Of a stretch of DNA of 64,000 nt, positions 132 through 63,240 are shown piece after piece. A program made the translations under genes and the position numbers. Origin of the DNA: Eledone cirrhosa (taxonomy: Eukaryota); the NCBI GenBank assembly GCA_964016885.1, contig OZ024743.1, positions 179,552,001-179,616,000 on the forward strand, in the 5' to 3' direction. Below the pieces are notes generated by a model. The model saw only the letters and a program-made list of their open reading frames with translations. It was not told where the DNA came from and searched no databases. Position 1 is the first letter of the stretch. The number at the start of each line of letters is the position of its first letter.

Positions 132-1920
132 GATATTAAATAAATGGAAACTATATTTATAAAACCATATTTATTTCGTTATATATATTTCAGGGATATC
201 ATATTAACAATATGTTATGCCATATTCAGACAAAATACAATATAAACAGTCTTATAAATAAATAGATACGACATACCTTTCAATCACCTTGCATTTGGGA
301 GGTTGATTTGGCAGTAAAAAAATATTGTGGACAGTTGTAAAAAGAAAGAGATAAAGAGAGAAAGAAAGAGAAACGAAGAAAAAGAAGAAATGCATGTGAC
401 TAAATAGAGGGATATAGAAAGATAGATAAAGAGAAGAACTTCATGTAAAGAAACAGAGAGAAATATATATAGAGAGAGGAAAAAAGAAAGAGATAGATAG
501 AGAAATTAGGAAGTTGAGTATCGGTTGATACATTTATTTATTTATTTATTTATTTATTTAGCTCTAGTATTAATGTAAAGAGAGATATATGTAGTTAAGA
601 GAGAAAATAGCCGTTATATAGAGAGAAAAAAAGAGAAAATGAAAAAGAGAAAATGCAACATAACCAGACATAAACGATGCAGAATTTAAAACCGCTATGT
701 TTTATCCGTAGAAAATATTAGTTCGTATAAAACAGGCATTATAATGTAAGTACCAGTATTCATGAATGAGACATGTATCTATAATGTGTGAAAAGTAATG
801 ATCTTATGTCTAGTTTTTAAAAATTCATATGTTTATATCATAATTATAAACAAACTCCCAATTCACACGAAAACATTCTCATTGTGCTATAAAAATTCAA
901 GTATACCTATATGTGTGTATATATACACATATATATAGAGTCTATATTAATTTTAACAATACTATTCTTGTCTTTATTCTACATGATTGTCGATCAAGCA
1001 GAAATAGAGAACGGATTTCAATATATAAATAAAAATAAAAATAAAAATATCAGAGACAAGAAAATAAATAAATAAACAGAAAACTAAAACATTTAATATT
1101 AAAAATAAAAAAATAAAAAATATTACAAAATATTAAAAAATATTAAAAAAATAATACAAATAAAACACAGAGATCAGCCTTTCAAAGTTAATTGACAATA
1201 TATTGCCAAGATCATCATAAGCATCAGAGTCGAAACAGATAAAACAAAAATTGTTTACCAAATCCTGTCTAGCAGAAATCATTCCAAAAGTTTAGGATAC
1301 CCATTTGGTCTACATATGTTCTTATATATAATATAGAAGTTTATCTAGTTTAAAATTTAATTCGATATATTTGGAGCATCAGCTTTTAGGGTAGTTTAAT
1401 TATTCATGAAGAATGTTTTAATAAAAAGAATGTTTTAATAAAAAGAAGAAATCGAAAGATTTATCGGCTAGTTTCATAAATAATTACAAATCAAATCAAA
1501 ACAAACATAACTACATTTTAAATTTAAATTTATATTTAAACGTTGAGTTCAATCTATGTCTGCAGCAACTGAATAAATTTGTCCGTAGATTAAGGGAATT
1601 TTTAGATTTTAGTATAAAGAATATCTCCTCCGCACAGATTTTTTTACTGCCAAATCAACCTCCCAAATGCAAGGTGATTGAAAGGTATGTCGTATCTATT
1701 TATTTATAAGACTGTTTATATTGTATTTTGTCTGAAGATGGCATAACATATTGTTAATATGATATCCCTGAAATATATATAACGAAATAAATATGGTTTT
1801 ATAAATATAGTTTCCATTTATTTAATATCATAAATATACTCCAAATACTTGTTGAGTGCTTTTATATCAGTTATAAATATTTACTCGTTGTTAACCCAAC
1901 AATTTAAATATAACTTTCCA
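132..1920 (+). mobile_element. Fold-back PLE-derived element (family A) between (TA)n tracts; ~190-bp inverted arms 132-322 / 1639-1830 plus 90-bp tail
   Basis: Arms are near-perfect reverse complements; each has an HHR motif; (TA)n at ~50-131 and 1921-1980; AT-rich interior without an ORF. Confidence 0.8.
1724..1789 (+). ncRNA. Type I hammerhead ribozyme motif
   Basis: TATTTTGT-CTGAAGA-[stem II with CATATT/AATATG]-GAAA-TATATATA-ACGAAATA; stem I 8 bp (one G-U), palindromic stem III. The inverted copy at 172-237 (-) reads CTGAATA (G8 lost). Confidence 0.8.
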
Positions 1921-1980
1921 TATATATATATATATATATATATATATATATATATATATATATATATATATATATATATA

Positions 1981-3645
1981 AGCAAAAGGGATAGTTAATT
2001 TGTTGGTAATTCAACAAATATATATTTTTGTAACTGATTCGAAGCACTCGACAAGTTTTCTGGAGTATAATATCAATGATATTAAATAAATGGAAACTAT
2101 ATTTATAAAACCATATTTATTCTATTATATATATTTCAAGGGTACCAAAACTTTGGTACGCACTCATCAGATAAAATCCAAACTTTGTTTTATAAATATT
2201 GACATATCCAGGAAGAAGATCTTTGTGTATCGAGGAAATTTTTTCATATAATTAACCGTCAAAATTCTATTAATTTAAAAACAGAATTATTTTCTTCTTG
2301 CAAACATCACAAAAAATCCACTTTACGAAGTATTTTTAATCTATGATATTCATTACACTTGAGTATATCTTATACACCTATAAAATGATCCTATTATTTA
2401 CTGAGTTTTTCTTTAAAAATTTAAATTTTTTAAAAATGATCTTCCTTCTTAAATTTAATATTTTTACCATTTGATATTCTTTTCCTAATGATACTATTCT
2501 TAATCTATTTTTTAGATGTAGATTGATACTCTTTAATTGACATTCTGAAAGATATCTTATTTACGATAGTTCTTCGAAATGTACTCCTAACATATCTAAT
2601 AATACATTTTTTTCCTCTCTTTAATCTTCAAACTTTTCACACATCTTTCGACGTAAATAATATGTAATTGAAATTCTCATCCTTGAAAAACATATAATAC
2701 AAAATACCTTATAATCTCACACAAAATAATATATAATTTTCTCTACATACTTTCTAAGTAAGTCATTCATAAATTTAATGGTTAGCAAATAATATTGGAG
2801 TTATCTTTTCCTTTACAATTGAGCAAACATAGACATAATAACTTGTATGATGAATTATATAATTTCGCTAAATTAACAAGGTTCTGAAAATATTTTCAAT
2901 GTTGGAACAAAATATTTGAATCTACAAATTGTTCTTCCCTTACAACTTGAACTACGTCTTTTTCTTAAATATTTAAGTAAAATGTAAAATCAACATCCTT
3001 CGTAACTCATATTAGAAATGTAAACAAATAATATGTGCGTTTTATTTCTATAAAATCACCAATAATACTTATACTTGCACAAGTATTAATCTCTATATAG
3101 ATATTTATATACTTACAACCTGTTGCAATGTTATAAGATAAAATCTACTTACAACCATACTTCTTCATATAATCTAATTGATTATATATACAATATTATA
3201 AGTCATAATATAGCTAAATAATGTTTTAAATTCCCTACAAACTGTTAATTCTTTTTAAATTCACGTAAATACAAACTGTTCCTACAAACTGTTAATTCTT
3301 TTTAAATTCACGTAAATACAAGCTTTTCTTTCTTTCTCTTTCTTCTTCTTACACATACATATATATCCTTATTCAAATCTACCTAGCGTCTAAAAATAAC
3401 GTTTTTTTTCATACTCATCTTAATAATTTGAAATATTTGACTTTTCTTCTCTTTCCCTTCTTTCCCTTTACTATCCAGGACGAACTTGAACCGTTAATAT
3501 GTTCTTCCTTGATATGTCAATATTTATAAAACAAACTTTGTATTTTATCTGTTGAGAGCGTACCAAAGTTTTGGTACCCTTGAAATATATATAATAGAAT
3601 AAATAAGGTTTGATAAATATAGTGTCCATTTATTTAATATCATAT
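1981..3645 (-). mobile_element. Fold-back PLE-derived element (family A); arms ~2077-2220 / ~3500-3643, tail 1981-2076
   Basis: Shares TGATATTAAATAAATGGAAACTATATTTATAAAACCATATTTATT and the tail with the 132-1920 element; flanked by (TA)n. Confidence 0.8.
2119..2177 (-). ncRNA. Type I hammerhead ribozyme motif
   Basis: Minus strand ATTTTAT-CTGATGA-GTGC GTACCAA AGTT TTGGTAC CCTT-GAAA-TATATATA-ATAGAAT. The partner at 3542-3600 (+) has CTGTTGA. Confidence 0.8.
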
Positions 3646-4124
3646 AAATATATATATATATATATTGCTTTGTCCTTTATATATTTCTACCGTATTGTAC
3701 CGGCTTTCTGGGATTTATCAGTCTGAGTCGTTTATTGCATATATATATTTTTCAAGTACCTTCCTCAGGTGAAATATTATATAAAGCTATAACGTTTTAC
3801 CTCCCTTTTTTTCCAGCTTTCACTTATTGTTCACACTCACTTCATTTCTCACATAAAGGTTCACCTGACTGACTAAGTACTGGTAGTTTTTGTAAGCTAA
3901 AACCTAGAAATTGTATGCAAAGAAACCGGTGTAGTGAATAAACCTTTTCTATGGTAGAAATATATCTCTCAGAGAAAGATACACACGCCATAGACGCATA
4001 AACACAGAAACACACAGATAAAAGCGCACAAAAAGACAAATACTTTACATCTCTCTATGTCTCTATAGTTTTATCTCTCTATAAAATCTGGAAATCATAT
4101 CTAAGTGGCCGTTATATCAATTGT

Positions 4125-61455: not shown

Positions 61456-61750
61456 TCTCTCTCTCTCTCTCTCTCTCTCTCTCTCTCTCTCTCTCTCTCT
61501 CTCTCTCTCTCTCTCTCTCTCTCTCTCATAGAAAGTTATCTATCTATCTATCTCCTCATTCTCTCTCTCACTCTCTATATATCTATTTAGCTACCTATCT
61601 ATTTATCTTTTCTATATATCTCTTTGTCTATCTATTTATCTTCTCATCATCTATCTATCCATCCATCCTTCTATCTATCTATCTATTTGTCTATTTATCT
61701 CTCCATTCTCTCTCTCTCTCTCCCCTCTTTCTCTCTCTCTCTCTCTCTCA
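61456..61750. repeat. (CT)n and (CTAT)n low-complexity tract
   Basis: Direct. Confidence 0.93.
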
Positions 61751-63053
61751 CTTTCATGCTCACTCTATATATTTCTTCACTCTATTCTCTCACCACTCTT
61801 CCGTTGATGAGATTATCATATATGGCTCTATTTATAATGTTTACTGTCTGTCAAAAGGATTAGGATTATATCAGTGTGACAGATCTCATAGTAGATAACA
61901 TAGTTTCATTCTTTCGTTCTTTGTCACTCGTGTTTAATAAGTATGTACACTGCCTCCCCCAAAATAGAAAGCCAAATAAAAGACAATAAATCATTCTGTG
62001 GCTAAATTGTACAAATATCTTTATATTTGTCATTTACAATTTTGATCAAGGAGAGTCATATATGATGTAGAGTTATATGTGCTTCGATTTCAGGTGTCGG
62101 ACAAAGTTTTTCTGCGAAAAGAGGCCGCTGTATTTAACTGACCCACTGACTCAAAATGATGCTATATTTAAATGACCCACTGACTCAAAAGGCCCGCTAT
62201 ATTTCACTGACCAACTATTTGACTGTTTTCAGTAAGCTATGGTATTTCTTAAGTCGATGGTTTGAGTTGATCATTTGAGTTGATGGTTTGAACCGAGAGT
62301 TTGGGTGAATCATTTGAGTCGTTGGTTTCAGTTAATCATCTGAGTGGATGGCTGATTCGATCATTTGAACCGATGTCTGTTACCTTTACTTACAGGGATG
62401 GTAGGATCTTTGTGTGAAAGTGAGAGGGGAATATTTTGAATAAAATCATAATTAACTAATCATCCTGTATTTTCATTTAACTGATTCGCATGTATATGCT
62501 TTTAACTGATCCTCCTGTATTTTCTTTTAACTGACTATTCTCTGATCTTACCCAAAGCCAGGAACTATAACTGTATCTTTATATATGTATTTACATTGCC
62601 ATAGATGCCTGTATATATGGTGGTGCGGTAGTGTATTTTTGCATAATAATTAAATAGATTGCCACTTATACATATTTCTGAGCTAGCATATTTTACAAAA
62701 TAGTTAATTAGATTGCCCAAATCTTAAAATTGATTATTTTCAGTGACACTAACACACATTTTTGTGCAGGCATATCAGTATCCAAATGCTTTCCAAAACA
62801 TATTAGATTCATTGAACAAAGGGAGTTATATAATATAAATTATTCATTTTCAACATAAGCCTGGCAGTACCATATCATTATATATAGCAGAACGAAATAA
62901 ATGCAAACGAAATTTTGTGCATATGATGGTCTGATTTTCAAATAGAAAATGTCTCTCTTGAAGATTTTTCACGTCTGGACTGTCATTGTCATGTACACAT
63001 TGACGTTTAGAAACCCATGCCTATCTCTCTCTCTCTCTATATATATATATATA

Positions 63054-63240
63054 ACGAAGGAAATGTGGTAAGGAACCAGGTGGACCATAACGCACCAAAG
63101 TACTCAATACTTGAGGTAGTAGAGTGGGTAATAGGAACCAGTAAGACCCCGACAGCTGAGCTCAAGCCGTTTCGACGGCTAATTCTGGACTAAATGAACA
63201 TTTATCCTGGTATTTAAATAGCCGATCTTCTCAAGGGGTA
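63054..63240 (-). mobile_element. PLE-type terminus: degenerate HHR (63146-63239) + tail hairpin (63102-63125) abutting (TA)n
   Basis: ACCCC-TTGAGAA-GATCGGCTA...TAGCCGTC-GAAACGGC TTGAGCTCA GCTGTC-GGGGT; homologous to 55350-55490; the element may continue rightwards. Confidence 0.65.

Follow-up and report, generated by a model that had tools for sequence, protein, structure and literature searches.

The 3′ ends of Penelope-like elements (PLEs) in a 64,000-nt stretch of the Eledone cirrhosa genome (assembly GCA_964016885.1, contig OZ024743.1, positions 179,552,001 to 179,616,000; hereafter the window) carry a small bulged hairpin downstream of a hammerhead ribozyme. The hairpin is a real, clade-wide and apparently undescribed feature of the Hydra set of PLEs. 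Copies of these elements stop a few bases before either of two such hairpins, and the hairpin is therefore likely to be a start guide for the copying enzyme. With a probability of about two in three, we propose that it would be an RNA signal, bound by the element's own protein, which sets the start of reverse transcription 2–10 nt upstream, so that two signals give two alternative ends. No account of this motif turned up in the literature on PLEs and on the TAR (trans-activation response) element of human immunodeficiency virus (HIV), a coverage that leaves out subscription papers, Repbase notes and figure images.

The motif comprises an outer helix P1 (RYUC/GARY), a 2-base 3′ bulge that starts with U, and further in a helix P2 that covaries and ends in a free loop 4 to ∼60 nt long. 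An unpaired ACU follows P1 in 48 of the 69 motifs listed, which was partly a search criterion. An initial annotation of the window had proposed a covarying 4-bp hairpin (RYTC-loop-GARY) in the tails of 12 dissimilar elements. All 12 strings are present at the positions and on the strands it gave, and a hammerhead or hammerhead-like core lies 5′ of 11 of them; at 55420, in a region 78% alike to that at 63102, the core is decayed. Because some sites are same-family pairs (1838/45207 and 55420/63102) or related (2046, 26652/47266), they represent only ∼8–9 families rather than 12 independent ones. The two pyrimidines noted before GA correspond to the 3′ bulge, U followed by U, C or A, except at 10319 (bulge of 1 nt) and 55420 (bulge AC). 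The TC/GA letters do vary on occasion: 2 of the 69 listed motifs have A-U in place of the U-A pair, a flip. Swaps at P1 pairs 1 and 2 do occur, mainly in this genome, but the informative covariation lies more in P2, a second helix inside P1 that the annotation lacked. Nor does the 4-bp stem alone exceed chance. The window holds 126 perfect RYTC-N8-40-GARY stems, and in held-out DNA (140 evenly spaced 10-kb stretches of the same genome, 1.4 Mb, unused in motif discovery) the plain stem was found in 6/59 cases after hammerheads versus 5/60 upstream and 5/57 far downstream, in a test that used a strict hammerhead scanner and in which many copies are tail-less. What stands is the central proposal, now better supported than in the annotation: the hairpin is best read as a conserved PLE cis-element and a candidate signal for recognition or priming, given the covariation in P2, the sharing among distant Hydra-clade elements and the copy ends a few bases 5′.

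Full-length leaders usually hold two copies of the motif between the hammerhead and the start codon. With a strict pattern, 8 of 20 leaders had two copies, 8 a single copy and 4 none, compared with 0/20 on the antisense strand and 10/400 in shuffles. A looser pattern gave at least two copies in 20 of 42 long downstream regions, one in 17 (many of them 3′ tails) and none in 5. Leaders from the Eledone genome itself agree with two copies; in a further set both were clean in 11/20 and at least one was present in 20/20. The starts of the two copies are mostly 55–120 nt apart, and copy 2 sits ∼15–60 nt ahead of the start codon. No copy 2 was identified in the window, which contains only 3′ ends. 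In one group (L414–L427, L432) P1, bulge and P2 of copy 1 are kept around an insert of ∼55–65 nt, and the loop of copy 2 is minimal.

Of 127 copy ends that adjoin TA or CA runs, 84 map a short way 5′ of copy 1 and belong to tail-less copies, 23 map a short way 5′ of copy 2 and belong to tailed copies, and 5 are elsewhere. Overall, the ends precede either hairpin by 2–10 nt (range 0–16). The copy-1 ends fall 16 to −1 nt before the hairpin, most at 2–7 nt (17 references), and the copy-2 ends 9 to −1 nt before it (7 references). BLAST ends include target microhomology, and ends more than ∼65 nt upstream are not visible in this count. Loci L001–L030, picked for their resemblance to a query with a tail, are excluded from it, as are ends that lack a TA/CA run. 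Of the 27 tailed copies of family F7, 26 share one stop and the 27th continues into copy 2 and the open reading frame (ORF), while 7 inverted partners stop before copy 1; in F14 a long-looped copy 2, which does not enter the end count, was found by eye just past the long end. TA is present within −10 to −2 of the hairpin at 43/45 first copies (25 and 29 in control windows) and at 19/24 second copies (12 and 11), and its enrichment upstream of both peaks at −6. If genomic ends are taken as starts of reverse transcription, the tail-less copies never copy the hairpin, and under this reading it would therefore act in the template.

The complete motif, unlike the plain stem, is linked to ribozymes in the held-out DNA. 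A hammerhead core lies upstream of 36/316 motifs with P2 of at least 3 pairs and a 2-nt 3′ bulge, compared with 1–8 of 176–305 for other bulge sizes or sides and 97/5600 at random positions. Up to 10 of the 36 belong to one tandem array with a CA bulge, which is probably a different repeat and not the same motif. When P2 of at least 2 pairs was allowed, hammerhead-linked motifs numbered 16/110 for TT bulges, 10/61 for TC, 4/67 for TA and 10/57 for CA (the one array), and 0–1 for every remaining type; the bulge thus starts with U in 30/41 motifs having a hammerhead upstream, and 10 of the rest are the array. This array, on the minus strand of L072 (6600–9500), consists of ∼310-nt units that all contain both a hammerhead core and a CA-bulge hairpin. 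Strict hammerhead scanners gave 4 matches in the window and missed most decayed copies, and scans for the core only were used for this reason. No Rfam family matched at any of the 12 sites; elsewhere the window gave only microsatellite-driven microRNA matches and weak HH9 matches. We rejected the reading of GAGT as a splice donor, since the variants GAGC and GAAC are equally common, and a selenocysteine insertion sequence was ruled out by eye (short variable loops, no quartet, leader position).

P2 covaries. In 43 clusters (26 from metagenomes, 17 from the Eledone genome), collected with a pattern that fixes only purine/pyrimidine class and including a few mis-anchored rows, Watson–Crick counts versus permutation means were 34 vs 27.1 and 41 vs 32.7 for P1 pairs 1–2, and 38 vs 23.1, 35 vs 21.8, 28 vs 11.3 and 21 vs 13.9 for P2 pairs 1–4. 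MAFFT failed to align the 5′ arms, so a covariance model was built on 11 equal-length sequences. Its top 10 matches include 8 of the 12 window sites, one of these being a training sequence. Among 36 distinct matches from other loci, 98.3% of cells are paired (83.5% when shuffled) and double changes number 37 (10.5 when shuffled), all in P2 with P1 nearly invariant, in an alignment that, being model-fitted, leans toward the modelled structure. Along a tree of the proteins from 27 marine loci (40–79% identity), P2 pair 1 changes from U-A to C-G or back no fewer than 6 times, pairing having been required by detection. The motif persists across proteins 40–79% alike while its flanks are unalignable. 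The element likely acts as RNA rather than DNA.

The window holds PLEs that are, by sequence, of the Hydra clade, with an endonuclease-bearing reverse transcriptase (RT) of Hydra signature. The one long frame, 5′-truncated at 56762–58483, gave no Pfam match and carries WYNPP, as in the Hydra alignment available from the supplement of Craig 2021 (PMC8557442). The predicted model of a full-length relative (predicted local distance difference test score 91.6) has TERT as its top fold match. A hammerhead is present in the pseudo-long terminal repeat (pLTR) except in F10 (non-canonical core) and at 55420 (decayed), and (TA)n target, inverted truncated partner and optional tail are all found. Loci elsewhere link families F2, F3, F7, F8, F9 and F10 to Hydra-type ORFs; F1, F4, F5 and F6 have no direct link. 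The motif recurs in the held-out genome, in metagenome elements with proteins 40–79% alike and, unannotated, in published Hydra consensi. By eye, it is present in 3 of the 6 consensi seen from Craig 2021 (PMC8557442), twice in one of these, and another consensus ends before it. In distant Hydra loci it follows 40/100 sense hammerhead cores versus 4/25 antisense cores. Run on 28 other loci out of a set of 96, the covariance model gave 43 matches of at least 18 bits (20 loci with a match); these distant Hydra loci came from metagenomes and contaminated assemblies, many on contigs without leader or tail. In 16 non-Hydra loci, putatively labelled Poseidon-like and Neptune-like, the best match reached 15.2 bits (one match) and none 18; the pattern search found none in non-Hydra leaders L322–L326 and one weak match in L327. 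True leaders are scarce in this set, so non-Hydra absence is shown for a handful only. Among what was tested, the motif is limited to the Hydra clade. No relatives were found in the viral contigs searched. Animal PLEs also occur inside bacterial assemblies of the GTDB collection (L250–L266, L317–L332), most likely as host contamination of bins. A hammerhead-bearing family with two ends lacks a clear bulged motif in its tail (L132, L134:7764, L154, L300:1700) and is a possible exception.

The window is AT-rich animal DNA crowded with (TA)n runs, from an assembly of 3.0 Gb, and holds many PLE 3′ ends, often with inverted partners. The features are as follows.

123–323, −: tail-less inverted partner of the F1 copy, stopping ∼9 nt short of the hairpin position
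1732–1773, +: hammerhead core of the pLTR, F1 (core scan)
1838–1857, +: bulged hairpin copy 1, F1 (string check); the tail continues to ∼1919, then (TA)n
2046–2066, −: bulged hairpin copy 1, F2; hammerhead core 2134–2170
10319–10338, +: hairpin copy 1, F3, 1-nt bulge; hammerhead core 10247–10268; the family sits after a Hydra-type ORF end in locus L160
23501–23524, −: bulged hairpin copy 1, F4; hammerhead core 23619–23656
∼24168–24382, +: inverted partner without tail, F4
24753–25034, −: partner without tail, F5
26652–26673, +: bulged hairpin copy 1, F5; hammerhead core 26553–26585
27868–27902, −: bulged hairpin copy 1, F6, long P2; hammerhead core 27974–28029
45207–45226, −: bulged hairpin copy 1, second copy of F1
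45639–45756, +: inverted partner without tail of the second F1 copy
45866–46158, −: inverted partner without tail, F7
47175–47199, +: hammerhead core, F7; weak Rfam HH9 match at 47159–47229, under the gathering score
47259–47359, +: tail of F7, short end to long end; in L028, a full-length leader, the long end falls ∼6 nt short of copy 2
47266–47287, +: bulged hairpin copy 1, F7
50203–50221, +: bulged hairpin copy 1, F8, G·U pair in P2; hammerhead core 50137–50159
55420–55443, +: decayed hairpin copy 1, F9, AC bulge
55706–55751, −: bulged hairpin copy 1, F10, long loop; tail end ∼55670
∼55800–55823, −: hammerhead-like core, F10
56762–58483, −: RT-endonuclease frame of the F10 element, Hydra-clade, 5′-truncated
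58341–58859, +: inverted pLTR without tail, F10 element
63102–63125, −: bulged hairpin copy 1, F9; the family sits after a Hydra-type ORF end in locus L047
∼63170–63234, −: U3-A8 hammerhead variant with long stem II, F9

In F10, an abundant and young family, the hammerhead core reads CAGAAGA instead of CUGANGA in the copies seen (window 55800–55823, −; L047, L394, L396), and this ribozyme may be cleavage-incompetent. The U3-A8 core variant is shared by two or more Hydra families and a family outside that clade (window 63170–63234, −; L116; L298, L307). Tails hold a family-specific extra hairpin between both motif copies (window 47310–47345, +, and 1870–1905, +). Tandem F4 units of ∼525 nt carry the hammerhead and both hairpins, apparently with no ORF (L059:6460–7260; L078:6630–7940; window 23448–24382), and are candidates for a non-autonomous, retrozyme-like derivative that retains both signals. 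The window also contains broken fragments of a non-Hydra PLE (48602–50061, −) and of an element of the long interspersed nuclear element (LINE) type (13247–16394, −), and ∼15 copies of a family resembling short interspersed nuclear elements.

Several observations weigh against the proposed start signal. Predicted folding across 69 contexts is moderate, with P1 above 0.5 in ∼60% and P2 pair 1 in 38%, and the sense strand is favoured only slightly (antisense, 52% and 23%). The permutation means quoted above ignore relatedness among clusters. Wobble pairs should reveal the folding strand, yet the unbiased marine set has G·U versus A·C at 5 vs 4; the own-genome ratio of 9 vs 0 is selection-biased, and P2 of the 43-cluster set gives 15 vs 6. 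Of the published Hydra consensi seen (PMC8557442), one has a degenerate motif and one no clear copy. Fifteen of the 127 ends are unplaceable, as they coincide with the end of a reference that has no known copy 2, and copy 2 is known in only 7 references. In F8 copy 2, identified by eye just past the long end, is a bulge-less 4-bp hairpin with a flipped pair. Finally, the in vitro precedent discussed below is a Poseidon element and not a member of the Hydra clade, and by eye its printed template, as far as shown in PMC11167929, contains UUC/GAA-type hairpins and no exact bulged motif.

The near-even wobble counts in the unbiased set do not favour one strand, and they leave room for a hairpin that works in single-stranded DNA or an antisense template, where the endonuclease would recognize it and, a few bases off, cut or resolve the intermediate, making both ends. 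P1, as an inverted repeat of nearly fixed sequence, would suit such a role. Craig 2021 (PMC8557442), in the part available, explains the tail by resolution through the endonuclease; according to a citation in the accessible text of Frangieh 2024 (PMC11167929), recognition by the D. virilis endonuclease depended on the tail; and antisense templates are argued for in the portion of Arkhipova 2013 available. A fixed double-stranded site is excluded because spacers vary from 8 to ∼65 nt and P2 covaries. By eye, several G·U pairs flanked by Watson–Crick pairs, one of them family-wide (F8), would be A·C on the other strand, and the starts of reverse transcription by the Poseidon element PAc in vitro equal its genomic ends (PMC11167929, in part). 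We consider this explanation unlikely.

An identical map of ends is predicted if the hairpin directs RNA cleavage or 3′-end formation a few bases upstream and the RT then starts ordinarily at the new 3′ end. PAc RNA-seq read ends do coincide with its start sites, but the same source, as far as available (PMC11167929), describes internal starts on unprocessed template, with product size constant when 3′ extensions are added; nor did the sites match any Rfam family. Cleavage as the primary role seems quite improbable to us. The position of copy 2 shortly before the start codon and the TA enriched directly upstream of hairpins could also mean that the hairpin is an operator for translation control, or serves RNA capture only, and that nearby TA microhomology sets the ends. 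TA is, however, common elsewhere in the leader (25–29 of 45 control windows), and still the ends crowd into two narrow windows, which take in 107 of the 112 that are placeable. We regard an exclusive role of this kind as very improbable; a dual one, operator plus start signal, is possible. Chance stems or plain shared descent without selected structure, suggested by the commonness of the plain stem and the partial relatedness of the window sites, are already largely refuted by the held-out enrichment, the antisense and shuffle controls, the pair swaps, the covariance-model matches and the persistence of the motif between unalignable flanks.

In the start-signal mechanism that we favour, the element's own protein would grip the hairpin in the RNA, and the nicked (TA)n target would anneal to the UA just upstream. 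From there cDNA synthesis would run into the pLTR, leaving the hairpin behind. A start at copy 1 would give a tail-less insertion and a start at copy 2 a tailed one, the tail being the stretch between the two starts and including copy 1. In a weaker step, the bulged U may form a triple with the A-U pair and so create a TAR-like arginine pocket; candidate invariant arginines in the N-terminal helix are R26 and R28 of protein P0003. A pocket like that of TAR or of the 7SK arginine sandwich motif 3 (ASM3) would account for the bulge having a fixed first base and a free second one. Given the flipped and bulge-less variants, such a pocket, if it exists, must be dispensable in some elements. A bolder version, possible but doubtful, is that a compact, portable TAR-like arginine pocket is the docking site of the RT that sets its starts at a constant distance of a few bases upstream, and that its ancient duplication makes the PLE tail.

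Two questions in the field are how PLE proteins find their own RNA and what gives their insertions two alternative 3′ ends. The two-copy arrangement is the new point here and would explain the long-puzzling optional tail. A motif of 20 nt that is clade-wide, duplicated and predictive of both ends permits an exact mutational test and gives a way into how templates are chosen by the RT lineage nearest to telomerase. If the bolder version holds, telomerase's sister group would have its first defined signal for a template start, and a pocket placed 3′ of UA in any RNA would direct that RNA into (TA)n. The motif can help to delimit Hydra elements in repeat libraries and might serve as a short tag in RNA-templated insertion.

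The stringent LINE 3′ stem-loops, group II intron DIVa and hepatitis B epsilon are likewise bound by their own RT and decide what or where it copies. LINE stem-loops lie within the copied region, and epsilon primes on protein inside its bulge; we know of none of the three that is duplicated into two alternative ends. As far as described in the available part of PMC12632851, the template boundary of telomerase and DRT10 shares with our hairpin a stem-loop beside the template that fixes a cDNA border in the same wider RT clade. That boundary lies 5′ of the template and stops synthesis, whereas the hairpin here lies 3′ of the copy ends and would set initiation; it is thus not a template boundary in the telomerase sense.

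With HIV TAR and 7SK ASM3, in the portions available (PMC6189040; PMC6140463), the motif shares a purine, a bulged U plus a free base, and then G-C and A-U pairs. The fixed letters here are purine-U-any-G-A opposite U-C-pyrimidine, and A39-U40U41-G42-A43 of 7SK and the UU-bulge TAR have matching letters in those sources. The A-U pair after the bulge is found in 67 of the 69 listed motifs, the U, G and purine having been parts of the search pattern. In TAR the apical loop lies beyond the GA/UC helix, whereas here the loop closes P2, the other helix, a permuted arrangement. No homology is implied. A few families have a flipped A-U pair, and one copy 2 is bulge-less; the triple is unstable even in free UU TAR (PMC6189040; PMC6140463, in part). 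The hairpin may resemble TAR in its working and is not a TAR.

The Hydra clade as portrayed in the accessible parts of Craig 2021 (PMC8557442) agrees with our elements in C-terminal endonuclease, W[FY]NPP, pLTR hammerhead, (TA)n targets, inverted pLTRs and a tail, although tails here measure ∼55–120 nt versus 30–40 there; the words 'stem-loop' and 'hairpin' do not occur in the available text. A functional comparison is PAc, the only PLE studied in vitro, as far as documented in the available part of PMC11167929. In vitro, its reverse transcription starts internally at two sites that match both genomic ends, and it needs RNA 3′ of the first start, a requirement localized to 172 nt. PAc and the elements described here share two internal starts 3′ of the hammerhead that bound the tail, and a stem-loop near the first start. 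PAc is a single family without a defined conserved motif and starts in an AC-rich loop inside the ORF; its start is not homologous to the target, whereas UA microhomology is present here. The signal in the Hydra-clade elements is non-coding, duplicated and located 3′ of each start.

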